Source: an uncultured archaeon (lineage in GTDB: Archaea; Asgardarchaeota; Lokiarchaeia; Sigyniarchaeales; SOKP01). Taken from it: a DNA stretch of 36,707 nt. A program made the position numbers and the translations under genes. The stretch is taken from the NCBI GenBank assembly GCA_964525635.1, contig CAZGJX010000033.1, positions 1 to 36,707 of the forward strand, read 5' to 3'. Shown here one piece after another: positions 1,740 through 36,621 of this stretch (its first letter is position 1; every line of letters begins with the position of its first letter). A model generated the notes under the pieces. The model did not search any database and was not told the origin of the DNA. It was given only the letters and a program-made list of their open reading frames with translations.

Positions 1740-3791
1740 ATGTCTCAACAAAAAGAAATTCCTATTGTGTGCCCATATTGTGGAGTAGGATGTAATACTG
1801 AACTAGTGGTTGAAGATGGAAAAGCCGTAAAAGTTATTGTTAAAGGAAGAAATCCTGATTTAAATGGTAAATTTATATGTATTAAAGGGTTAACTGTAGC
1901 AGATATCTTAAATCATGAAGATCGCTTGAAGAGTCCTCTTCTTAAGATTAAAAATGAACATGTAGAAACAGATTGGTCAAATGCAATCAAAACAACTGCA
2001 ACCAAATTAAATGAAATAATTGAAAAATATGGAAACAATTCGATAGGTGTTTTAGTTTCTGGAAAAATATCAAATGAAGAGGGCTATTTAGCACAAAAAT
2101 TTGCTCGTACTGTGATAAAAACTCATAATGTTGATACTTGTGCGAGATTATGCCATTCCCCAAGTGAAGTTGCACTTAAGATGCAATTTGGATATGGGGC
2201 CGCCTCAGCATGTATTAATGATTTTAATGAAGCAGAAGTAGTGATGTTAGTTGGAGCAAATACACGATTTACTCATCCAGGGATTTGGAATCTATTAAGG
2301 AGGAGAGAAAAAAAAAGTATTTTGATTGTTGTAGATCTTTTCGAAGCAATATCTTCAATTGATATTAAATTAACACCTAATCCAAGTACAGATTTAATAT
2401 GGCTGAATGGATTAGCTAAAATTATCGTTGATAAACAGATTTATGATACTGAATTTATAAATGAGAGAACTATCGGATTTAAAAGATTTAAACAAAGTTT
2501 AGAAATATATGATAAAGATACTGTAGAACAAATAGCAAATGTTCCATACACTCAATTACAAAAAATTGCCGATCTTATTTCTAAAAAGAAAACAGTATTT
2601 GTTTGGGGTATGGGTCTTACTCAACATGCAAACGGAACTGATGCTGTTCTTTCTATTGGAAATCTTGCTATGTTAACAGGAAATATAGGTAAAAAAGGAA
2701 CTGGTGTTATTCCTTTAAGGGGCCAAAATAATGTGCAGGGGGTAGTAGATATGGGTGCAAATCCTTTTAGTTTAACAGGGGGATATTCTTTAACTGATAA
2801 AGGTGCTTTAACTCATTTTGAAGGATTCTGGAATACACGATTATCAGAAGAACCAGGATTAAGTGCAACACAGATGATCCATAAAATCCTTGATGGAAAA
2901 ATAAAAGCTTTATACGTTATAGGTGAAAATCCCGCTTTTAGCGAACCTCAATCTGCTTTTGTAAAATGGATGCTTCGAAACCTTGAACTTTTAATTGTTC
3001 AAGATATTTTTCTTACAGAAACTGCTAAATATGCTGATATTATTTTTCCTGCTGCCGCTTTAGGTGAAAAAGAAGGTACATATACAAATGCACATCGACT
3101 TATTCAATTAAGTGCTAAAGCAGTTGATCCTCCAGGAAGTGCAAAAGTGGACTGGGAAATTATACAAGATTTAGCACAATCAATGGGTTATAAATGGAAT
3201 TACAAAAATTCAGAAGATATTTGGAATGAGGCAAGAGAAATTGCACCAATTTTTAGAGGAGCTTCTTATTCCCATTTAAAAGAATCTAATGGTCTTTTTT
3301 GGCCAATATATGATGATAAAAGTACAGGTATAGAACGTTTATATATAGATCGTTTTATGTTTTCTGATAATAGAGCAAGATTTTACCCTATAAAAATTCC
3401 CTCAATTTTTACACATACAACTGATGAATATCCATTTATGTTAGTTACGCATCGTTTATATGAACAATTTAATACAGGAGAAATGACTTTAAGGAGTAAA
3501 ATAACCTCCAAAAAGGTTAAAAAAGGATTTGTCGCTTTAAACGATTCGGATACGATTTCATTAGATCTATCAAATAATTCATCAATTAGAATTAATTCCC
3601 CTTATGGTAGTATTGTATCTCCAATTAAAATAATTAAAGGAATGAAAGTTCCAAGTGGTTATATTTTTGCGCCTATTCATTTTTTTACCTATACAAATTT
3701 TAATGAATTAACAAGTACTTACCCTCTTGATCCAAAAGCTCATATGCCCTCTCTTAAAAAAATACCTGTTAATATTGAGAAAATTAACTAA
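1740..3791 (+). CDS. fdhF: Formate dehydrogenase alpha-subunit-like Mo/W-bis-PGD oxidoreductase (Cys form)
   Basis: CPYCGVGC...CIKG 4Fe-4S motif, CARLCH metal-ligand motif, WGMGLTQH, PLRGQNNVQG, EKEGTYTN and a C-terminal molybdopterin-dinucleotide-binding domain. Confidence 0.9.
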   Translation: MSQQKEIPIVCPYCGVGCNTELVVEDGKAVKVIVKGRNPDLNGKFICIKGLTVADILNHEDRLKSPLLKIKNEHVETDWSNAIKTTATKLNEIIEKYGNNSIGVLVSGKISNEEGYLAQKFARTVIKTHNVDTCARLCHSPSEVALKMQFGYGAASACINDFNEAEVVMLVGANTRFTHPGIWNLLRRREKKSILIVVDLFEAISSIDIKLTPNPSTDLIWLNGLAKIIVDKQIYDTEFINERTIGFKRFKQSLEIYDKDTVEQIANVPYTQLQKIADLISKKKTVFVWGMGLTQHANGTDAVLSIGNLAMLTGNIGKKGTGVIPLRGQNNVQGVVDMGANPFSLTGGYSLTDKGALTHFEGFWNTRLSEEPGLSATQMIHKILDGKIKALYVIGENPAFSEPQSAFVKWMLRNLELLIVQDIFLTETAKYADIIFPAAALGEKEGTYTNAHRLIQLSAKAVDPPGSAKVDWEIIQDLAQSMGYKWNYKNSEDIWNEAREIAPIFRGASYSHLKESNGLFWPIYDDKSTGIERLYIDRFMFSDNRARFYPIKIPSIFTHTTDEYPFMLVTHRLYEQFNTGEMTLRSKITSKKVKKGFVALNDSDTISLDLSNNSSIRINSPYGSIVSPIKIIKGMKVPSGYIFAPIHFFTYTNFNELTSTYPLDPKAHMPSLKKIPVNIEKIN

Positions 3792-8402: not shown

Positions 8403-9614
8403 ATGGAAATAGGTAAAAAAGACGGTTTACTAGGAGGCTTATTGATTAGTATCTTTATTCTTGCTGGATTATCAGGCTTTCTCGGTCTTTCATTATTAAA
8501 TGTAGAGAAGGGAAACGCCCCAGAACAGACGATCCCTGGTCCATGGGGCTTACCTGATGATTGGAGTACTGCATATAATTCATCTTATTTTACTTTAGAC
8601 AATGGCACAGATATAATTAAAATAACTCTTGGAGATCTTCTAGAGGGGATTACTTTAGCTTTAGATGAAGAAGAGAATGGAAATGGAGCAGATATTAATG
8701 AATATAAAGTCCCACTTTATCTCTATACTATTCAAGATCCTTATTCTGGGATTTACTATACAGGAGTAGATATCTTAGATGTTTTAGAACATTGGAATAC
8801 AAATTTTGCATATAATCTCTCTTTTATGGCCTCAAAAACTCCTGATGGATTTAGTTCTGTAAGATATTTAAATATGAGTACGGCAGATATTATAAATAAG
8901 ATGTATGAGAATGATGAAGATCCTGTAATTATTGCTTTGGCAGCAAATAAAGGATGGCTTCCAGGATCAAAATTGGGTAATTTTACAATTGTAGGTAAAA
9001 ATATGAATGAATCATTGAGTAATTTAGAATATATAAGTGTATTAGATTCATGGAAAGTAGATATTTATGTTAATAATACTCTTGAATATACAATTGATCC
9101 TAGTAATATGATGACCAATGAATATGATGCCACCTATTATTATGAGGATAATGATTGGTGGAGTTTTAATAGACACTATTGGGGAAGAAATATTTCAGAA
9201 ATTATTTCCCACACCTCAATATTAGCCGAAGAAAATTACACAGTAAGAATCTGGTCTTGTGATAATTGGGCAACTCCAGTCCCATCTGGAACAAGTCCAG
9301 AAAAGCCATACAATAATACTGATGTTGAAGAAGGTATAACTCCTCCTTGGAATCCTGATAAGGATTTAGTTAATGATCCTGAGGAACCCTTACCTGAGTC
9401 TGATTTACTGATGAGTTTGGTATATGCAGACCAAGAATTTGGAGAAACGGGGCAAGGTATAACAGATCCTATCTGGCCTTATAGGTTAATGTGTGGTTAT
9501 CATAGAGGACCATTTTATGTATGTATTCCTGGAAGACCAAGACGTAATTATCTCTCACATGTTGTAAAAATTGAGATTACCGTATATCCAGGATCGATTC
9601 CTGACGATTTGTAA
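8403..9614 (+). CDS. Membrane-anchored surface protein with two divergent molybdopterin-oxidoreductase-like (sulfite oxidase fold) repeats
   Basis: N-terminal TM and many N-x-S/T sequons. Two repeats (YTGVDILDVL..FMAS..DG..IIALAAN..GNFTIV..LSNLEYI and YWGRNISEII..IWSCDNW..LVYADQ..GPFYVCIP..LSHVVKIEI) parallel the 10589-11134 protein. Confidence 0.6.
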   Translation: MEIGKKDGLLGGLLISIFILAGLSGFLGLSLLNVEKGNAPEQTIPGPWGLPDDWSTAYNSSYFTLDNGTDIIKITLGDLLEGITLALDEEENGNGADINEYKVPLYLYTIQDPYSGIYYTGVDILDVLEHWNTNFAYNLSFMASKTPDGFSSVRYLNMSTADIINKMYENDEDPVIIALAANKGWLPGSKLGNFTIVGKNMNESLSNLEYISVLDSWKVDIYVNNTLEYTIDPSNMMTNEYDATYYYEDNDWWSFNRHYWGRNISEIISHTSILAEENYTVRIWSCDNWATPVPSGTSPEKPYNNTDVEEGITPPWNPDKDLVNDPEEPLPESDLLMSLVYADQEFGETGQGITDPIWPYRLMCGYHRGPFYVCIPGRPRRNYLSHVVKIEITVYPGSIPDDL

Positions 9615-26330: not shown

Positions 26331-27131
26331 TTATAAATCTCTTATGAATCTAACCAGATCTGATGCTTCCTTTAATTTTCTTTTAATTAAATCATCCATA
26401 TCATTAGGTATATCTTGTAAGTTTTCCTCCATTTTGATAAGATCATATGCCATAGAAATGGTATGGAAAATATTACCTAAATTATGAGAATATTTATCTT
26501 TCATATCATTTTTTTCAAGTTCTGTATTCATAAGTCTTAGATCTAATAAAGCTACAATCGCAGAGACTAAAAGCATGTTAAAAAATATTATGTCCATACC
26601 TAGGGCATATAATCTCAAATACTCAACTTCAAGACTCTCAATAATCGTAAATAATAAAGCTAAGAATACTGTGGACAAAGCCATACCAAGAAACGCATGT
26701 GAAAGCGTTTTTTTTTTTAAATATATCCTAAAGACCATAAATGCACTTATTAAACAAAAAATAATTATCAAAATTTCAAATGAAATCGTGAGAATTAAAA
26801 AGGGAACAGAAGTAATCATTATAGAATTAACTGGAAATTTAATTCTATTTTTCTTAAATATATTTAAATATTCTTTAAATACATGAATAAAGATTATTAT
26901 TGCTCCTGAGCTTAAGAATATTCTACTTATAAAATGCCCAATTTCGCCCTGAACACCTTGAGTAACAATATCATTAATGGTACTAATAACAACTCCGATC
27001 GTCGCAGAAATATATGCTAAAAGTAGAATTTTCAAATCTTTACGCTTTTGATAAACGATTGTCATTATTATTGATGCAATAATACCTAAAAGCGAGAGAA
27101 TTATACTTAATTGAGGATAAATTGTAGGCAT
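26331..27131 (-). CDS. Multi-pass (~6 TM) membrane protein ending in a HisKA/DHp-like phosphoacceptor, no ATPase domain
   Basis: Hydrophobic residues 6-196, then a coiled helix with H-box-like KYSHNLGNIF and a second helix ending ASDLVRFIRDL. Confidence 0.65.
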   Translation of the reverse strand: MPTIYPQLSIILSLLGIIASIIMTIVYQKRKDLKILLLAYISATIGVVISTINDIVTQGVQGEIGHFISRIFLSSGAIIIFIHVFKEYLNIFKKNRIKFPVNSIMITSVPFLILTISFEILIIIFCLISAFMVFRIYLKKKTLSHAFLGMALSTVFLALLFTIIESLEVEYLRLYALGMDIIFFNMLLVSAIVALLDLRLMNTELEKNDMKDKYSHNLGNIFHTISMAYDLIKMEENLQDIPNDMDDLIKRKLKEASDLVRFIRDL

Positions 27132-27679: not shown

Positions 27680-28165
27680 TTAAAATTGATTTAAAGTATT
27701 TAAATTCCTGAAACTTTTAGTTTGTTTAGAATGAATTTCTGATTTAAAATATGTCTCTTTTTCATTGATATGAATTTTATAAATAAAATCAAAAATGCGC
27801 AAAATGTTAAGATGCCACCTAATAATATGATTATTTATCTTTAGATGTTTAACAATATCAGAATATTCTACTCCAGGATTTTTTATAATATAATCATATA
27901 TTTTCTTTCTCTTCAGAACCATTAAAACATCTTCTCTGAGGAAACTAGATCCTTCAACTAATATTTTTCTTTTTAAAAAAGAGGAGATTATCTCTTTGAT
28001 ATCTTTTTTATTGATATTTATATTGTCTTTTTCAAATTTTATTCTAATATAAGGAATGATTTGACACAATTCAAAAACCCTAAATTGATTCAGATAATTT
28101 TTAATTACTTGATATACCAATCTTTCCTTATCAATTAATTCAGAAGACATTTTATAAAAACACAT
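27680..28165 (-). CDS. Winged-helix transcriptional regulator-like protein (start possibly ATG 28150)
   Basis: R.KIYDYI.KNPG....DI.KHL.I....IRWHL.IL..F.FI wHTH, preceded by a second helical domain; starts 24 nt after the GH9 gene stop. Confidence 0.8.
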   Translation of the reverse strand: MCFYKMSSELIDKERLVYQVIKNYLNQFRVFELCQIIPYIRIKFEKDNININKKDIKEIISSFLKRKILVEGSSFLREDVLMVLKRKKIYDYIIKNPGVEYSDIVKHLKINNHIIRWHLNILRIFDFIYKIHINEKETYFKSEIHSKQTKSFRNLNTLNQF

Positions 28166-28189
28166 CTTAATTTATATTATTCAATAGGA

Positions 28190-31100
28190 TTATTGATAAA
28201 AGTCGTTAAGCATTTCTTTAATAATTCTCTGTCGCTCATTAGGACTTAAAATTAACATTTCCTTGATAAATTCCTTCTTCTCATATTCGTTGTCCCAACT
28301 TAGTTTTTCAATATTTTCAAGGAAATCTTCTTGAAGTATAGTTATTCTTATATCTTTAAATTGATCAATTCTTCTCAGAAGTTCCTCCTCTTCAAAAATT
28401 TGAATAAGTCTACTATTGTCTAAAACATCAACTTCACTTTTTACGAAGATTTTATGATCTTTAGGTTTATCAGATGATGTTATCGGAGGAATTTTTTCCT
28501 TTCTTCGGTTTACTAGTACATATACAGAACCTACTAATGTTAATACAATTATAGCTATAATAGTTACAAGTAAAATCAAATCCTCTAGTTCAGGACCAAT
28601 TGCTCCTGGAATCGTCACACTTGTTTTATAGGAAGGATCACTAGGATAATCATTAACATCAACAGCTATAATTAAATAATAATATGTGTTACCAATAGTT
28701 ACATTTGTGTCTAAATATTCACTTATATTGGTTTCAGCAATTAAAGTTGATTCACTTTGTATAAAATTTTCTTGTAAACTTCTATAAACTAAATATTTAA
28801 CAAAATCTATCTCTGAATTATCATCCCAATCAAGGAAAACTTCGATTTGATTAAATAAACTGGTTGTAACTCCCGTTGGAGATGCTGGGGGCTCTGTATC
28901 AATATCAGTTGTAGCATTCACTTCTATCGATGAAGTACTTGGATTACCATATATATCGACAGCTATTACACAAAAATAGTAGGTTGTATCCTGATAAAGG
29001 AGAAAATTTAAAAATTCGTTAATATAAGTTTCAGCTATGAAATATGTACTATTTGGTGTAAATCCTGGTGTTATGCTTCTATAGATACGATATAAATCTA
29101 AATCTAGCTCCGGATTATCAGTCCAATTAATAAAGATTCTTGATGAATCATACACAAAAGCTTCTAAACCTGTAGGAGCTGCAGGTGGAGTAATGTCAGG
29201 ATCAGTTATATTGTATAATTCTATTGAAGGAAAACTTGGATTTCCATATATATCAACAGCTACTATACGATAATAATAGGTTGTTTCAGGTGTTAATCCA
29301 ATATCATAATAAAAACTATCTGTAGTGTTAGCTATATTTGTAGAGATATTTATTGCAAATTCTGGTGCTGTATCACGATAAATCCAATATATATCAAAAT
29401 CAGATTCTAAATTATTATTCCAATCAAGATCAATTCTCGTATCATTATAAGTTAAAACAGTAAATCCATTTGGAGATACTGGGGGTGTAATATCCGGATT
29501 TGTTGTATCGTTTACCTCTGATGATGGAGGACTTAAATTATTTGCTAAATCTACAGCTATTACCTGATAATAATATGTTGTATCTGGAGTTAATCCTATA
29601 TCTAAATAGTAACTTACGGTATTGTTAGCAATATTCGTTGAGAGATCAGGAGTAAATCCAGATGTTGTACCACGATAAATCCGATATCCATTAAAATCCG
29701 GGTCAGAATTGTCATCCCAATTAAGTAAAATACTTGATGTATCAATTACATTAGTGTTTAATCCCGTAGGAGATGCAGGAGGTATGCTATCCGAAGCTGT
29801 TGTATCATTTACCTCTGATGATGGAGTACTTGGATTACCATATATATCGACAGCTACCACACGGTAATAATAGGTTGTATTTGGAGTTAAATCTGTATCA
29901 TTATAATCACTGTTAATTGTCTCAGAGATCAAATTTGAAATACTAGGTGTAAATCCTTGAGTTATACTTCGATAAACGCGATAAATATTAATATCTGGTT
30001 CGGAATTATTATCCCAATCAAGATCTATTCTCGTATCATTATAAGTCTGAACTGTGAGTCCTATTGGAGCTGATGGAGGAGTCTTATCTGAGAATGTTGT
30101 TGTATTTACTTCTAGTGAGGGTGAACTTGGATTACCAAAAAAGTCCACTGCGATCACTTTATAATAATATGTGGTTCCATTATCTAATCCTAAATTAAAA
30201 TATTCACTGATACTAGTTACTGCGATTAAATTACCATTAGGATCAAAACCCGGTGTAGTACTTCGATAAACTCGATAATTGTTGAAATCCGGTTCAAGAT
30301 TATCCTTCCAATCAAGTTGAATACTAGTCCCATTATATGGTTCTGCTGTAAGACCTGTTGGTGCTGCAGGTGGATCTGAATACAAAGCTTCTAGGGGTTC
30401 TTGACCAAATATTAATGTATCATTATCGTATACTGGAATAAATTCTGATGGAATTGGGTTGGAATTTAATCCTTGAAAAGACCAATCATTTGTAGGGTCC
30501 CACGCAGAAGGAGGGGCCCCGGATGGTAATTCAATTCTTATTTGAGACTCTCTAGCAGCTTTTGTTTCGTCACCTGGATAGATACTTGAACCTGTATAAT
30601 CGACTATTATATAATATGTATCATTAAAAAGGTGAATTAATCCTGAAACAGTTACTGGAACTTCAGAACTCTGTGGTAAAATACTAATATTTGCAATAGT
30701 ATAATTTGCTTCGAATACTTCGCTTAAATTGAAAAAGTATCTATACGAAAGGTTATCACCTACTTTGGCTGGCCAAGTTGCATGGTTTGATAGATCGCCA
30801 GCAAATTGCATTACTATATCTTCATCAACTATAAGACGTGCATTGCAATAATATTCAAGACCAGTTGTATTTTTTGGAATAAACCAATTTGGACCTGGAA
30901 AATCGGTATGTGGAGTCCCACCATACAATTCTGTCATTTTTGCAAGTGCTCCAATCAATCCTGAATTGTAATCTAATGCAACTCTATTAGTTGTGGAAAC
31001 TGATCTATCATTAATCCAAAAATCTCCACCATCAGCAGGACCACTCACAAGAGCGCCATATATGATATGGGAATTATTAATAGGATCATCAATATTTCTA

Positions 31101-32419
31101 TTCCATGAGCCATGAGCTGTACTATGACGTATCTTTTGCCAATAACTATTTCCAAATCCTATTAAATAGCTTGTACCATAAGTATTATTACCAAGAATAT
31201 AATTAATTTGGGATTTATAGAAATCTTGATATATTGGAACATTTGCTTGAGTACAATTTGGATCATCTGACCATACCGCAGCTAAAAATGCCTCGTTAGC
31301 GGCAAAACGAAGGGTTCCCTCACCTCCTCCCCAGTTAGCTCTATAATAAGCAAGTCCTCCTGGAGTATAATGGTTAGCACCATTTACCCACCAATCTAAA
31401 TTTCGTTCTATTGATTCTTTATAAGTTTGATTACCTGTTTCTCTAAACAATAAAATTTGGGCTAAATAATGCATATCATCCCAAGTATGGGTTGATGTAT
31501 ATTTAATATCAGAATTATCTTTTTTCCAGTGAATTACTGCTTGCTGAGCATCATCTAAATATGTAGAAATATGTGTTGCATTATATAATAATATTCCTGC
31601 AGCAGACAATTCGTCCCAAAATCCATTTTTTGAACTATAATCTCCCGCATAGGAATTATAATAATTATCCGACAAGCTTGTCCAAGCAAGTGTATAGAGG
31701 TCTTGTGCATGAGATAATAATTTTGCAGCATATCCCGGATTTGAAACTTCAAATACAATTGAGGAAAATACGAGAGCAGCTGCAGTTGCCGCAGCAACTG
31801 TGGAACCATGATTTGTTTGATCTATTTTATAAGAAGGGCGAGTTAGAAATTTATCAACCACCTCAACAGGACCCCACCATGCATAATCGTCATTAGGATT
31901 TCCAACTTGGAAATAATATTCATTTGGAGCTGTATGACATTTTAAAATATAATCTGTACCCCATTTAATAGTATCAAGAATTTCATCTAATTGTCCAATA
32001 CTATTAAAAACATCTTCATACTCATACACAGCCCAAGCTAATGTAGCAATTGTGGATGCCAAAGGAAGTCCTGATTTCACATAACCATCATCATCAAAAT
32101 ATCCTCCAATTAGATCTTTACCTACATCTGAACCATCATTAAGACATGAATCACCTCTCCATATTACAGTATTATTATCCGGTAAATCTCCTGATCTTTG
32201 TTGTTGATAGAAATATATTGCTTTTTGGAGAGCAGCAGCGTAATTGTCAGGCGATTCCATTGGAGGTGACCAATTTGTTTGAGGAATTATATTTGAATTA
32301 TTATTAAAATTTTTCAAAGAGGGAAGAGAAAATAGTGGATCAAATGAACCAATAGAAAATGTACTAACTATTAAGGCGATGAGTATACTTGCATATATTT
32401 TTTGTTTGCGATTTGCCAT
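28190..32419 (-). CDS. Cell-surface protein: signal peptide - GH9 (catalytic residues substituted) - CBM3-like - 6x FN3 - TM - cytoplasmic tail
   Basis: GH9 motifs FY..QRSG.LP...V.WRGDS, KWGTDY.LK.H, DEL.AA, QINYILG.N, TAHGSW and GALV.GP; CBM3c-like N...WPA....LSYRYFFNLSE...WDPTNDWS; six FN3 repeats; TM followed by RRKEK. Confidence 0.93.
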   Translation of the reverse strand: MANRKQKIYASILIALIVSTFSIGSFDPLFSLPSLKNFNNNSNIIPQTNWSPPMESPDNYAAALQKAIYFYQQQRSGDLPDNNTVIWRGDSCLNDGSDVGKDLIGGYFDDDGYVKSGLPLASTIATLAWAVYEYEDVFNSIGQLDEILDTIKWGTDYILKCHTAPNEYYFQVGNPNDDYAWWGPVEVVDKFLTRPSYKIDQTNHGSTVAAATAAALVFSSIVFEVSNPGYAAKLLSHAQDLYTLAWTSLSDNYYNSYAGDYSSKNGFWDELSAAGILLYNATHISTYLDDAQQAVIHWKKDNSDIKYTSTHTWDDMHYLAQILLFRETGNQTYKESIERNLDWWVNGANHYTPGGLAYYRANWGGGEGTLRFAANEAFLAAVWSDDPNCTQANVPIYQDFYKSQINYILGNNTYGTSYLIGFGNSYWQKIRHSTAHGSWNRNIDDPINNSHIIYGALVSGPADGGDFWINDRSVSTTNRVALDYNSGLIGALAKMTELYGGTPHTDFPGPNWFIPKNTTGLEYYCNARLIVDEDIVMQFAGDLSNHATWPAKVGDNLSYRYFFNLSEVFEANYTIANISILPQSSEVPVTVSGLIHLFNDTYYIIVDYTGSSIYPGDETKAARESQIRIELPSGAPPSAWDPTNDWSFQGLNSNPIPSEFIPVYDNDTLIFGQEPLEALYSDPPAAPTGLTAEPYNGTSIQLDWKDNLEPDFNNYRVYRSTTPGFDPNGNLIAVTSISEYFNLGLDNGTTYYYKVIAVDFFGNPSSPSLEVNTTTFSDKTPPSAPIGLTVQTYNDTRIDLDWDNNSEPDINIYRVYRSITQGFTPSISNLISETINSDYNDTDLTPNTTYYYRVVAVDIYGNPSTPSSEVNDTTASDSIPPASPTGLNTNVIDTSSILLNWDDNSDPDFNGYRIYRGTTSGFTPDLSTNIANNTVSYYLDIGLTPDTTYYYQVIAVDLANNLSPPSSEVNDTTNPDITPPVSPNGFTVLTYNDTRIDLDWNNNLESDFDIYWIYRDTAPEFAINISTNIANTTDSFYYDIGLTPETTYYYRIVAVDIYGNPSFPSIELYNITDPDITPPAAPTGLEAFVYDSSRIFINWTDNPELDLDLYRIYRSITPGFTPNSTYFIAETYINEFLNFLLYQDTTYYFCVIAVDIYGNPSTSSIEVNATTDIDTEPPASPTGVTTSLFNQIEVFLDWDDNSEIDFVKYLVYRSLQENFIQSESTLIAETNISEYLDTNVTIGNTYYYLIIAVDVNDYPSDPSYKTSVTIPGAIGPELEDLILLVTIIAIIVLTLVGSVYVLVNRRKEKIPPITSSDKPKDHKIFVKSEVDVLDNSRLIQIFEEEELLRRIDQFKDIRITILQEDFLENIEKLSWDNEYEKKEFIKEMLILSPNERQRIIKEMLNDFYQ
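28611..30376 (-). repeat. Six tandem ~300-nt fibronectin type III coding repeats
   Basis: Unit D..PP..P.G......D...I.L.W.DN.E.D...Y.IYR....GF.P.....IA......Y.D.GL...TTYYY.V.AVD..GNPS.PS.EV..TT occurs six times. Confidence 0.92.
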
Positions 32420-32666
32420 TTTCTCTGTTTTTTAAAAACCCTTTATATACTAGAATTATATATATAAATATTGATTCAAAATTCCACCATTATATATATA
32501 ACAAATATAATAAGTGTTATATAAATGACTATGGAGAAATATTGAATGATTTATAATTATAATTAATTCTGTTTATTATAACCCTTTTATTTTTCCTGAA
32601 TAATTTTATTTAAAATATTATATTTTTGGTAGTGCGATAATTTCTTTAATTCAATTTAGATTGGAT

Positions 32667-33224
32667 TTAAAACTTAATAATTCCTGCTCTATTCTTTATT
32701 AATTTTGTAATTTCTTCAAACGTGTAATCAACATTTTCTCCCGTTTTAGCAGAACATTCTTGATATGAATACAAATTTTGGTTATATACTATCTTTTCTG
32801 CTTGTTCTCTAGATATAACTCGTTTATATTTTAGGTCGGATTTTCCTCCTACTAAAATAATTGGTAAAGTAGTACCTTCCATCTTTACATCATAGCCTTT
32901 TCTAAACATATTAATCCACTCCTCAAAATGTCTAATACTTTCAAAATTTGTCATATCGAACATAAAAAGTGCTGCATTACAACCATTTACGAATGCAGGT
33001 AAAAGAAATCTGTATCTATCTTCTGCTGTGAAATCCCATATTTGTAAAGACATTTCATGATTATCAATCTCAATTCTTTTAGAATAAAAATCAACGCCTT
33101 CAATCTTTGAGTAAAATGTATGATAAAATCCAGTTAAGTATCGATTTATAAGTGAAGTTTTACCTACCCCATTATCACCAAAAATGCATATTTTAAATAC
33201 AATTTCACTTTGCAAAGTAAGCAT
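32667..33224 (-). CDS. Rab-like small GTPase with divergent G2/G3/G4 motifs
   Basis: FKICIFGDNGVGKTS (G1), GVDF, LQIWDFTAEDRYRFL, VGGKSDL and ECSAKTGENV; no C-terminal prenylation Cys. Confidence 0.92.
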   Translation of the reverse strand: MLTLQSEIVFKICIFGDNGVGKTSLINRYLTGFYHTFYSKIEGVDFYSKRIEIDNHEMSLQIWDFTAEDRYRFLLPAFVNGCNAALFMFDMTNFESIRHFEEWINMFRKGYDVKMEGTTLPIILVGGKSDLKYKRVISREQAEKIVYNQNLYSYQECSAKTGENVDYTFEEITKLIKNRAGIIKF

Positions 33225-34170
33225 TTTTATACCTCATATAAAAAAAAAAAAAGGAAGTGATTATTTTTTTTGCTATTTTTTGGTTTTTTAACCACTCCTA
33301 AAACTATCTGACAATTTTTTAATCCAGAAATCCTTCAGATTTCCGATATCATTTCCTTTTTATTTTTATCTTATAGGAAATATCCCAAATATTTCCGCAA
33401 TAAACTTTAATAAATAAATTGGATTGGTGATATTTAAAATCATATGGAGAAACTTTGAATGTATAATTATTTTTTAATTAATCTTAACCTTTTTCGACCT
33501 GAGATATGAGAAAATAGTATTATTTCTGATAAAAAAATTAATAAATTTCTATGAATTATTAAAATTAGTTATTGAGGAACATCCTTATTAATATCATATG
33601 ATTTTAATTTCAATTCAGAATTAGGTTTTTTAATAAAAATCGATTCTTTTTTTATTATTATTTTTGTATAAATATACCATAAAAATTTTTAAATTAAGGA
33701 AAAAATAATATGATTGAACGAATTTTTTTGAATATTTAATAGTAAATGATAAAGGATTATTTAGAATGCAAGTATCCAATAATCTTTATATAATTGTTTT
33801 CTCAGAGAAAAATCAAAATTATGCAAGATGGATTTTGAAGTTGGACTTTATCAATGTGATCAAATTTTAGGAGAAATTTACCATCATATGAGAGTTTATT
33901 TTTTAGAAATTAAATGGTTGATATTTTTTCTTTAAAAAAATATATACAGAATGTCGATTATAATAAAAGTAATAAGAAAGGATATTTAGTATAAAAAATA
34001 GAAAATTAAACTAATCAGAGAAAACTCGATAAGAAAATAAATATAATCATTATTATAAGTGATAATTTTAAATATAATGTAATATATAGTAATGAATAGC
34101 CTCATTTATTAAAAACAACTTTAATTTTTAACACAATTCATAAGATTTTCATATAGATTAAAGTAGATAT

Positions 34171-36621
34171 TTGATGGAAATAGATAAAAAGAAGAGATCT
34201 TCTAATCAAATTAAGTTAGAAAAAAAACGTATTACATTAAGATGTATCTTAGGACGCGTAGAAGAGAGTTTTCAAAAAACTATTTATAAAGGCATTAATG
34301 ATATTTCAAGAGAGAGAGATATAAACATTATCTATTACTCTGGTAGGCCATTAATTTTTCATCGAAGATTTGAGGCTTTCTGTGATATCATATTTGATTT
34401 AATAAATCCAGACATAATTGATGGAATAATTTCTGTCTCTGGAGTATTTCATAGCGACATTAGTCAAAATAAATATTTAAATTTACTCAAAAAAAATAGA
34501 GATTTACCATTAATAAGTATTTCAGTAAAACTAGAAAATCATCATCGTATTTTAATTGATAATCAAAAAGGTACATATGATGCAATAATGCACCTTATTA
34601 AAGTTCATGGATGTCGTCATATTGCATTTATAAAAGGACCTGAGGGGCATTATGAAGCGGAATTAAGGTTTAAGGCTTATAAGAAGGCATTAACAGAAAG
34701 GGAAATCTCTTACAATCCTGCTCTTGTTTCTCCTGGAAATTTTGAAGAAAAAGCAGGAATTAAAGCTATTCAATTATTACTTGATGAAAGAAAAGTTAAA
34801 TTTGATGCTATTATGGCCATAAATGATAATGTGGCATTGGGTGCATTATTAGCACTTCAAAAAAGAAAAATAAATGTTCCAAAAGATGTAGCAATTATTG
34901 GGTTTGATAATTCTATTAATAGCAAAATTTCAAATCCTCCTTTAACAACTATCCATCAATCCCCTTATCTTCTAGGTAAAAAAGCGACGGAAATCTTGCT
35001 TAATATTATAAATGGTCAAGAAGTATCAAAAGAAATAATTATTCCAACCGAATTAATTATCCGTAGATCATGTGGATGCTTTTCTAAGATAATAACCAAT
35101 GCTTCAATACCACCATTAGATTTTCAAAAAAGAAACAAACCTAAATTAAATGAATTTATATCTTCAGTTCTTAAAAAATCAATAAATCCTATCTTAAATC
35201 CAAAAAAATCTAAATCAATCGAAGTATTGCATAATGCTTTTATTATAGATATCAATCAAAATGAAAATTATAACTTTTTATCAAAATTTGATGATATACT
35301 CAGACAATCAGTGTCAAATAAAGAAAATCTTAATCAATGGTATGATTTTATCTCTAAAATGCGTAGTTTTTATGCACCTTATCTTCTCTCACAAAATAAG
35401 TTATTTCTCCAAACGGAGAATCTCTGGCACCAATCACGAATACTTATTGGAGAAACCATCGAAAGAGAAAAAGAATTGAAGAATTATATTGAAGAACGAA
35501 ATTCTCTGAGATTTTTATCATCTCTTGAATATATAAACATGGGACATGAATTACCAAAATTAAAAAAAAGGATTTTAGAAGAATTGCCTCTCTTGGGAAT
35601 ACGAAGTTGCTATATCTCTTTATTTGATGATATTAAAACCTCTTTTGAATGGGCAAAGATGGTTATAGGTTTTGATGATCGAGGAGTATTTGATATAACC
35701 AATAAATCTCCTTTTCCATCTTCCCAATTAATCCCTGAAGAAATATATTCCTCTGAAAGGCGTTATGAATGGATAGTTGAAGCATTGCGATTAAGTAATG
35801 AAAATCAGATTGGATTCATTGTTTTTGAACTTCAAAAAGAAGTAGGAGCATATTTTGGAAGAATTAGTAATCATATAAGTGCCGCATTACAAGGAGCTCT
35901 AATATTTGAAGAACGAGAAAGCTTATTAAAAGAATTAACTCGATCTAATATTCGATTAGAAGAATTTGCTTCTATTGTATCTCATGATTTAAAGTCACCA
36001 ATTCATACAATAATTGGATACTTAACACTCTTTAAAGAACAATATAAAAAGGTTCTAGATGATAATGCTATTGAAACAATTGAAACTGTTCTTATGAGTA
36101 CACATCGGATGAATTATCTTATTAATGATATCCTGAAGTATTCTCATATATTAAAGGGAGATATAACTTTTCAAGAAATAGATTGTAATCATATTTTAGA
36201 AAAGGTGTTAATTAATTTGAATTCTTCAATACAAGACAATAAAGCAAATATAACATATGAAATATTACCAAAAGTAATTGGAAATGAAATAGAGTTAATA
36301 CAACTGTTCCAAAATCTAATTGATAATGCAATTAAATTCCATAGTGATGTTTTACCTAAAGTTCATATTAGTTGTAATAAAAAAGGAAAGATGAATATTT
36401 TTTCTATTAAAGATAATGGTATTGGTATTGATCCTATTCATTTTAAAGAAATTTTTGAAATTTTTAAACGATTACATTCATATCACGAATACCCTGGGAG
36501 TGGAGTTGGATTAGCTATTTGTAAAAAAATAGTTGAACATCATAGTGGGGAGATGTGGATTGAATCTGAAAAAGGAAAAGGAACAACCTTCTTTTTCTCA
36601 TTACAATCTATTAATAGTTAA
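34171..36621 (+). CDS. Cytoplasmic histidine kinase with N-terminal LacI-type sugar-binding domain
   Basis: IDN..G...A..HL...G.R.IAFI.GP, A.ND.VALG, VP.DVAIIGFD, PPLTTIHQ and LIIRRSCGC (LacI effector domain, no HTH); then FASIVSHDLKSP, QLFQNLIDNAIKF, DNGIGI, GSGVGLAIC and GKGTTF. Confidence 0.93.
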   Translation: MMEIDKKKRSSNQIKLEKKRITLRCILGRVEESFQKTIYKGINDISRERDINIIYYSGRPLIFHRRFEAFCDIIFDLINPDIIDGIISVSGVFHSDISQNKYLNLLKKNRDLPLISISVKLENHHRILIDNQKGTYDAIMHLIKVHGCRHIAFIKGPEGHYEAELRFKAYKKALTEREISYNPALVSPGNFEEKAGIKAIQLLLDERKVKFDAIMAINDNVALGALLALQKRKINVPKDVAIIGFDNSINSKISNPPLTTIHQSPYLLGKKATEILLNIINGQEVSKEIIIPTELIIRRSCGCFSKIITNASIPPLDFQKRNKPKLNEFISSVLKKSINPILNPKKSKSIEVLHNAFIIDINQNENYNFLSKFDDILRQSVSNKENLNQWYDFISKMRSFYAPYLLSQNKLFLQTENLWHQSRILIGETIEREKELKNYIEERNSLRFLSSLEYINMGHELPKLKKRILEELPLLGIRSCYISLFDDIKTSFEWAKMVIGFDDRGVFDITNKSPFPSSQLIPEEIYSSERRYEWIVEALRLSNENQIGFIVFELQKEVGAYFGRISNHISAALQGALIFEERESLLKELTRSNIRLEEFASIVSHDLKSPIHTIIGYLTLFKEQYKKVLDDNAIETIETVLMSTHRMNYLINDILKYSHILKGDITFQEIDCNHILEKVLINLNSSIQDNKANITYEILPKVIGNEIELIQLFQNLIDNAIKFHSDVLPKVHISCNKKGKMNIFSIKDNGIGIDPIHFKEIFEIFKRLHSYHEYPGSGVGLAICKKIVEHHSGEMWIESEKGKGTTFFFSLQSINS

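Follow-up and report, generated by a model that had tools for sequence, protein, structure and literature searches.

Introduction

The closest described counterparts of the system reported here are the RsgI/SigI pairs of Clostridium thermocellum, in which extracellular CBM3 (family 3 carbohydrate-binding module) or glycoside hydrolase (GH) modules sense biomass (PMC6852018), and the dead sensor Rsi24C-GH5, which has lost its acid/base and binds cellulose (PMC3526467). RsgI is a type II protein with a cytoplasmic N-terminal anti-sigma domain and an autoproteolytic periplasmic domain with an Asn-Pro site (PMC10328401). In this study, we analyze a stretch of 36,707 nucleotides (hereafter the window; contig CAZGJX010000033.1 of assembly GCA_964525635.1) from an uncultured archaeon of the Lokiarchaeia, which encodes a 1409-amino acid (aa) protein carrying a catalytically dead GH9 domain next to a gene for a winged helix-turn-helix (wHTH) protein. 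We think it probable that the 1409-aa protein is a single-pass glycan-sensing receptor of a sigma-free, anti-sigma-like pathway controlling the secretome in Lokiarchaeia. It appears to be one copy of a large receptor-regulator-promoter system which probably controls secreted enzymes.

Like RsgI/SigI, the locus has a single-pass receptor with an extracellular CBM/GH module, in this case a dead GH9 domain followed by CBM3c. RsgI/SigI sequesters a co-encoded transcription factor and has a dedicated promoter element on cellulosome genes and on its own operon; here, the hold of the receptor tail on the wHTH protein is a structure prediction, and for the promoter element that we found we infer the reader. 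This stands in contrast to RsgI in several respects: the receptor is of type I, with the sensor N-terminal and outside and the tail C-terminal and inside, it has no RsgI_N Pfam match, there is no juxtamembrane autoproteolytic domain in the gap of about 8 aa between the last FN3 domain and the transmembrane (TM) helix, and the partner is a tandem wHTH in an archaeon with TATA promoters instead of a sigma factor. The resemblance is convergent. The fold, CBM3c and Ca-site residues are common to the Theme-B GH9-CBM3c endoglucanases (TfCel9A, 1js4; Cel9G, 1g87), from which ancestry is direct through intact lokiarchaeal GH9s, whereas the receptor has added a stalk, a TM helix and a signalling tail and has lost D58, H125, H376, E424 and cleft aromatics (catalytic-site residue numbers D55, D58, H125, H376, R378 and E424 are those of TfCel9A, 1js4). 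ToxR/TcpP/CadC and the archaeal TM-fused tandem-HTH proteins (PF24266, HVO_0163-type) also tie a wHTH output to a single-pass sensor. In the window, however, the genes are split (receptor stop at 28190), the wHTH is soluble and there is a dedicated tail, fusions being confined to relatives in genome G019; compared with membrane-tethered one-component regulators, the wHTH has an extra N-terminal domain forming the predicted interface. Pfam searches found no histidine kinase or receiver domain of a two-component system in the receptor or the wHTH. The archaeal activators Ptr2 and TFB-RF1 bind next to the TFB recognition element (BRE) and TATA box, and Mlc is sequestered at the membrane by PtsG. 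The present system resembles these in an element just upstream of TATA and in a regulator which would be titrated at the membrane, but the proteins are unrelated and none of those systems has an ectodomain receptor with a swappable tail.

To our knowledge, archaea have no sigma factors, and we know of no archaeal pathway of this kind from a receptor to a soluble transcription factor. A description of the system was not found in the literature covered, outside which most subscription papers lay; it is apparently undescribed, being new in its parts and in its domain of life, with a logic convergent with anti-sigma sensing. In eukaryotes, cytoplasmic tails of single-pass receptors release or recruit transcription factors. 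As no relatives of eukaryotes are closer than the Asgard archaea, a native Asgard receptor-factor example bears on the origin of cell-surface signalling. Moreover, the receptor tail, the factor and the DNA element are small soluble parts, which allows in vitro testing without culturing the organism.

Results

The receptor gene and its neighbor have the following features:

28190-32419, minus strand: receptor gene, 1409 aa, comprising signal/anchor, dead GH9, CBM3c, six FN3, TM helix and cytoplasmic tail (open reading frame [ORF], Pfam, TfCel9A alignment)
32342-32419, minus strand: N-terminal hydrophobic signal/anchor, aa 1-26 (hydropathy)
30920-32254, minus strand: non-catalytic GH9 domain, aa 56-500 (PF00759, E 2e-114; site table)
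30380-30862, minus strand: CBM3c-like module, aa 520-680 (Pfam and structural-homologue matches)
28604-30373, minus strand: six tandem FN3 domains forming the stalk; relatives have 2-6 copies (repeat comparison)
28511-28579, minus strand: single TM helix, aa 1281-1303 (hydropathy)
28193-28420, minus strand: acidic, conserved helical tail domain, aa 1334-1409, predicted wHTH-binding (anti-factor) module
27680-28165, minus strand: two-domain truncated wHTH with an N-terminal winged-helix-like domain and one ArsR-like wHTH; likely start 28150; recognition helix aa 112-124

The first-pass annotation of this DNA had described an intact 1409-codon frame with a CBM3-like module, six FN3 domains, a TM helix and a cytoplasmic tail. 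The minus-strand ORF (28190-32419) is indeed open across all 1409 codons, and Pfam, structure matches and hydropathy found every one of these modules. The GH9 match (PF00759) spans aa 60-492, and structure 1js4 aligns to the receptor with E 1e-133, so that the presumed residue equivalence to Thermobifida Cel9A holds. The CBM_3 Pfam match is weak (aa 542-602, E 0.0015), and a separate endoglucanase module, 2xfg_B, aligns to aa 537-678 (1e-27). Pfam also matched fn3, the repeats beginning at aa 683, 781, 880, 979, 1078 and 1177. The TM helix is the one strong hydrophobic segment, directly followed by NRRK, and 106 aa are cytoplasmic. There are 35 N-glycosylation sequons in the outside part and none in the tail; this split and the basic residues after the TM helix fit a type I topology. 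The closest homologues of the receptor carry Lokiarchaeota or Promethearchaeota labels.

The catalytic sites are altered as follows:

32084-32086, minus strand: G112 in place of the catalytic base D58, with D55 kept as D109 at 32093-32095 (1js4 alignment)
31883-31885, minus strand: Y179 in place of H125 (1js4 alignment, site table)
31121-31129, minus strand: R431-H-S433 in place of H376-H-R378 (1js4 alignment, site table)
30983-30985, minus strand: R479 in place of the catalytic acid E424 (translation, 1js4 alignment)

The three motif changes on which the earlier claim of a dead enzyme was based, namely DDDG at 32084-32095, an Arg codon at 30983-30985 in the catalytic-acid motif (R479 at the E424 position) and RHS for HHR (R431 and S433 at the H376 and R378 positions), were all confirmed by translation and alignment. 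The loss of the catalytic base proved to be partial: D58 became Gly, but the second base Asp, D55, is kept and only one was lost. With the exception of R378, the residues at the catalytic sites (D55, D58, H125, H376, E424) do not vary across 134 intact homologue rows. The intact lokiarchaeal GH9s have 120 invariant positions, of which the receptor retains 102 and only six (A110, D112, G175, H179, H431, E479) are changed in every dead copy; four of the six are D58, H125, H376 and E424. Because catalytic positions are invariant in intact homologues and so few positions are altered in all dead copies, the loss is not a matter of chance.

Judging from the alignment, the cleft of the dead GH9 is remodelled. 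W209, W256 and H376 are gone from all dead copies and F205 and Y420 from nearly all, and S210 is Asn throughout, while Y206, D214, W260 and Y429 are kept, as is R317 save for a Lys in one row. The Ca-site residues D214/E215/D261 are retained in the window's receptor. Since the aglycone and -3/-4 cleft residues (H125, F205, W209, W256, H376, Y420) are lost, cellulose or beta-glucan is a putative ligand.

The genome carrying the window is designated G000, and G001, G002 and G003 are genomes of the same genus, four species in all. Nine dead GH9 rows from these species form a single clade (support 100/99) nested among intact lokiarchaeal GH9s, which around this clade often bear dockerins, indicating that catalysis was lost once and that duplication followed. 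Of seven GH9 genes in G000, three are dead (the window receptor and those on contigs C75 and C222) and four intact, three of the latter with dockerins. Dead GH9s are present in all three other species, and the copies share the same lost sites across four species and three paralogues. Tree and alignment show the ectodomain to have derived once from the secreted GH9-CBM3c cellulases of the lineage, by targeted loss of catalytic residues. The expectation that the pseudoenzyme is under purifying selection, and not decaying, was borne out by the ratio of nonsynonymous to synonymous rates (dN/dS), which was 0.16-0.31 for the dead GH9 domain, 0.12-0.14 for intact pairs and at most 0.06 for the tail; these are rough Nei-Gojobori values, near saturation in most pairs (proportion of synonymous differences 0.5-0.85), with regions missing from contig-truncated genes left out. 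The least saturated dead pair gave 0.17 at dS 0.18. Every dead GH9 with a complete C-terminus has the TM helix and tail, and no complete intact GH9 has them. The contig-truncated dead genes break within near-identical FN3 repeats, and the end of C222 matches at 94% the start of contig C8, which runs on as FN3-TM-tail-wHTH. At G002:C13, a window-type dead GH9 is combined with an upstream gene size and promoter resembling those of C222-type loci (L032, L034, L035), which suggests ectodomain exchange between paralogues. In genome G035, a GH9 gene with intact catalytic motifs (L044:1298-4924) is split by a single TAA stop.

The 76-aa tail domain is the most conserved part of the receptor, with 80-83% identity among orthologues compared with 59-64% for the GH9 domain. 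A profile search returned 322 tail clusters at 50% identity. Among 149 representatives, the tail is C-terminal in 146, and 101 of the 106 long ones have a TM helix upstream. Within the host family, 32 of 40 genomes have it; it is weak elsewhere in the phylum, and it follows beta-helix, SBBP propeller, SBP_bac_5, multi-TM and other ectodomains of no assigned type. The proposal that the tail recurs behind varied ectodomains next to the same wHTH family thus agrees with these clusters and with gene adjacency in G000, where a member of the wHTH family lies beside 10 of the 11 membrane tail proteins, and a tail receptor beside 12 of the 13 members of that family. The tail is predicted to form four or five helices and is acidic (19 D/E vs 12 K/R), whereas the wHTH is basic. 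No Pfam or NCBIfam match was obtained for the tail, which is no proof of a new fold, and matches to ESM Atlas features were all below 0.9; its best PDB structural match (Z 4.2, root-mean-square deviation 2.2, 50 residues aligned) is a generic helical bundle.

Short TM-less tail proteins make up 25 of the 149 representatives. Stand-alone examples of 82-96 aa (L037:2031-2306, L079:8739-8999, G000 C39:18149-18436) are candidate soluble inhibitors of the wHTH, and the promoter element described below precedes such a gene at C8:2031. Two tandem tails occur on the receptors L082:5162-6793, L089:295-2529 and L129:520-3201. A single-copy form of about 264 aa, conserved in two other genera (L119:780-1571, L120:647-1438, L121:1701-2486), lies directly after a full-length wHTH and has two TM helices, the tail and a ubiquitin-like domain, the last based on a weak rad23 match and on an Atlas cluster with PF00240 in 23% of members; this domain hints at proteolytic control. 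In another family, of Asgard archaea with small genomes, large single-pass proteins (L122:1588-6255, L123:3-4052) gave weak internal tail-like matches, and no wHTH was seen adjoining these two.

The wHTH ORF downstream of the receptor has 161 codons. It adjoins the receptor gene as had been reported, but the gap is probably 39 nt and not 24, because the second ATG (28150) corresponds to a conserved Met. The pairing of the two genes also stood, with the reservation that this neighbor is truncated and may be an adaptor or decoy instead of the output factor. The family has a characteristic N-domain and two ArsR-like HTHs, and the adjacent protein is without the third domain of its paralogues of about 220 aa; the orthologues in G001 and G003 are equally short (153 aa), and a frameshift hiding the third domain was ruled out, no remnant being found. 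A recurrent gene order, full-length wHTH, promoter element, truncated wHTH and receptor, was found in G000 C13 and C82, G001 C41 and G002 C35, with a similar arrangement of the truncated wHTH in G001 C207 and G019 C32. Truncated wHTHs are therefore a regular part of the system, most likely as adaptors or feedback decoys competing for the tail. In G019, the tail is fused to a whole three-domain wHTH in L090:1250-4516, L094:781-5421 and L095:698-3412, two of which also carry an ectodomain and TM helix. The window's wHTH is PF24266-like, and its top structural matches are DNA binders of the ArsR/MarR type. A mirror-tree correlation (rho 0.54, 20 pairs) was set aside as support, for it fell to 0.38 (p 0.07) within the G000 paralogues and is explained by co-duplication.

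Binding of the tail to the wHTH, as previously proposed, is supported by complex prediction. The pair scored 0.81 and the best of three controls 0.01 (ESMFold2 with custom alignments); among solved complexes, 58 of 80 attain the score mark, as do 2 of 110 mismatched pairs, a calibration that is rough here since custom alignments were used. The runs share at least 91% of contacts, and the partner pLDDT (predicted local distance difference test) is at least 81. The tail makes its tightest contacts with the second HTH helix (wHTH residues 112-124), which includes the invariant W117, and the N-domain adds to the predicted interface. Tail-less relatives also conserve the contacted helix, and so in the model the tail seems to mask the surface that recognizes DNA, the geometry expected of an anti-factor. 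These relatives, six TM proteins of G000 with fused tandem HTHs and with neither tail nor N-domain (C1:4456-6723, C43:13211-15472, C67:13191-15458, C93:11808-14072, C7:20775-22028, C28:2598-3881), constitute a related one-component family. W117 was considered as a tail-specific residue and rejected, the WHL motif also being kept in them; by this comparison, it is a general feature of the recognition helix.

Upstream of the receptor gene lies a copy of a promoter element with the pattern TTCA-N8-CCA-N6-TT(A/T)3A, the last part of which is the TATA box:

32520-32546, minus strand: TTCA-N8-CCA-N6-TATA, some 100 nt ahead of the receptor gene and retained in the G001 orthologue

The element was found upstream of 54 G000 genes, its matrix having been refined on the same 54 promoters; shuffles gave 0-4 sites and the opposite strand 10. 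Genes for secreted proteins (40/54), for dockerin, GH9 or CBM3 proteins (8/54) and those proximal to a tail or wHTH (17/54) are all enriched, and the targets include GH5, GH9, GH10, LamG lectins, dockerin and PKD proteins, and S8 and C14 peptidases. In 130 kb of held-out tail/wHTH loci from other genera, there were 16 sites against 0.2 expected. The five genomes with at least six tails had pattern counts of 46, 26, 11, 19 and 31 against 3, 7, 4, 4 and 6 for a spacing control, whereas 18 tail-less genomes had 65 against 67 in total. The signal emerged only with inclusion of the TATA box and reduction to TTCA/CCA; the upstream 25-nt part of a 37-bp motif from C75 gave background alone (12 vs 2-10) and was dropped. 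These comparisons show that tail, wHTH and promoter element co-occur, and they suggest that the wHTH reads the TTCA/CCA element. The half-sites, TTCA and (T)CCA, are separated by roughly one turn of the helix, a spacing that would fit two tandem HTHs. The 24 dockerin-bearing ORFs of G000 (e.g., L040:214-2691, L042:2628-6203, L043:2595-6203, L036:6557-8005) include intact GH9-CBM3c enzymes, and several have the element, suggesting a cellulosome-like secretome in an Asgard archaeon.

Discussion

It seems from comparative evidence and the predicted complex that the first-pass proposal of a pseudoenzyme receptor tied to a wHTH regulator is sound, with cellulose or beta-glucan retained as its presumed ligand. 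The parts of the system would be a receptor of variable ectodomain, TM helix and tail, a tandem-wHTH regulator family, and the TTCA-N8-CCA element upstream of TATA. At rest, the acidic tail is predicted to hold the wHTH at the membrane and off DNA, with the recognition helix of its first HTH covered. The trigger would come when the dead GH9/CBM3c, carried on the FN3 stalk, engages a beta-glucan or a cello-oligosaccharide, and receptor clustering, force or proteolysis would then release the wHTH. A freed full-length, three-domain wHTH would then bind TTCA/CCA and activate genes for secreted hydrolases, dockerin proteins and surface proteins, and the targets would include the receptor itself, truncated wHTHs and soluble tails, providing feedback. 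The neighboring wHTH being truncated, the DNA-binding output may come from a full-length paralogue acting in trans. More tentatively, Lokiarchaeia may have independently evolved a sigma-free equivalent of the extracytoplasmic function (ECF) sigma/anti-sigma system, with kinase-free type I receptors of swappable ectodomain, an acidic anti-wHTH tail, paralogous tandem-wHTH activators, a bipartite element next to TATA, and truncated wHTH decoys and soluble tails as feedback parts; in the genus of the window, cellulose would thereby induce a dockerin-based, cellulosome-like secretome. The finding also points to regulated cellulose degradation by a dockerin-rich Asgard lineage.

Several observations weigh against glycan sensing through this pathway. 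Firstly, the cleft platform (F205, W209, W256, H125, H376, Y420) was lost along with catalysis, and glycan binding may be weak, moved to CBM3c, or gone. Secondly, the link between dead GH9 and tail is one evolutionary event, and the TM helix and juxtamembrane region are poorly conserved (32-52%), giving no hint of a transmembrane signal route. Thirdly, the complex test is also passed by near relatives of true partners, so that a pass is no sign of cognate specificity; the adjacent wHTH is without a third HTH, and the orthologue G002:C145/P0002 has no downstream wHTH although its tail is still 83% identical, pointing to a partner in trans. Finally, at genus level the correlation between motif and tail is not significant (rho 0.37, p 0.09), G007 and G018 have tails and no motif excess, and the motif was not found upstream of C222-type dead GH9s and several intact GH9s.

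With the cleft aromatics lost, the coupling might be real and the input not a glycan in the cleft, the rod serving as an adhesin or bulky envelope probe whose damage, shedding or attachment is sensed, in which case the regulon would be one of surface or envelope stress. Many sister receptors with beta-helix or propeller stalks would agree with this, as would a motif regulon that is a broad secretome including proteases and surface proteins, beyond glycosidases. We consider this rather unlikely, as Y206, D214, W260, R317 (Lys in one row), Y429 and CBM3c are kept at a dN/dS of about 0.2, the genome has seven GH9s and 24 dockerin proteins, and a cellulose-binding dead GH sensor has a precedent in Rsi24C-GH5 (PMC3526467).

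It is unlikely that the element is read by a variant TFB at the BRE or by the tail-less TM-fused HTHs, with the tail-bound wHTH being a repressor or a non-transcriptional adaptor, e.g., for ESCRT-II-like partners or GTPases. The motif directly precedes receptor or wHTH genes in unrelated genera and is rare elsewhere there, and in a second genus its count tracks the expansion of tails (G019, 31 vs 6); these findings have to be set against the position of the element, which is that of a BRE, the presence in G000 of TM-fused tandem-HTH proteins that share the WHL helix but have no tail, and the weak genus-level correlation. Among the Foldseek rows for the wHTH are tandem wHTH chains of ESCRT-II and Pol III, whose E-values are similarly weak, but ArsR/MarR-type DNA binders come top.

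A non-signalling surface binding protein, with the tail as a sorting or anchoring tag and the wHTH as an ordinary co-located regulator, is very doubtful: the near one-to-one adjacency of tail and wHTH, the fusions, the TM-less stand-alone tails (25/149) and the complex prediction all speak for a working partnership, even if one orthologue is without a wHTH and the surface proteins that carry the tail differ widely. A decaying cellulase pseudogene or assembly artefact, for which one could cite a long terminal branch (0.42) and a dN/dS slightly above that of intact enzymes, has a negligible chance and was rejected in view of a clade whose lost sites coincide across four species and three paralogues, the open 1409-codon frame, a dN/dS far below 1 and the 102 of 120 invariant positions kept.

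Neighboring genes and other observations

Two further features lie upstream of the receptor gene:

32667-33224, minus strand: Rab-like small GTPase, 185 aa, the syntenic upstream neighbor in orthologous loci
33433-33459, minus strand: promoter element, second copy, preceding the gene for the Rab-like GTPase; present in G001 as well

The GTPase is 76% identical in G001 (homologous loci L031:3953-4507 and L140:743-1300). From its promoter, it is a probable member of the regulon, which would make a link to membrane trafficking or secretion possible. Near the receptor, a histidine kinase with a fused LacI-type sugar-binding domain is encoded at 34171-36621 on the plus strand, possibly a second sugar sensor. 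A 266-aa protein with six TM helices and no Pfam match (26331-27131, minus strand) has a C-terminus which, by eye, resembles a truncated kinase dimerisation helix. Lastly, G001, G002 and G003 have, downstream of their orthologous receptor locus, a conserved, unannotated 59-aa ORF that is absent from the window and lies about 100 nt after another copy of the element (L031 ~9040-9215, L033 ~3015-3190, L051 ~390-565).

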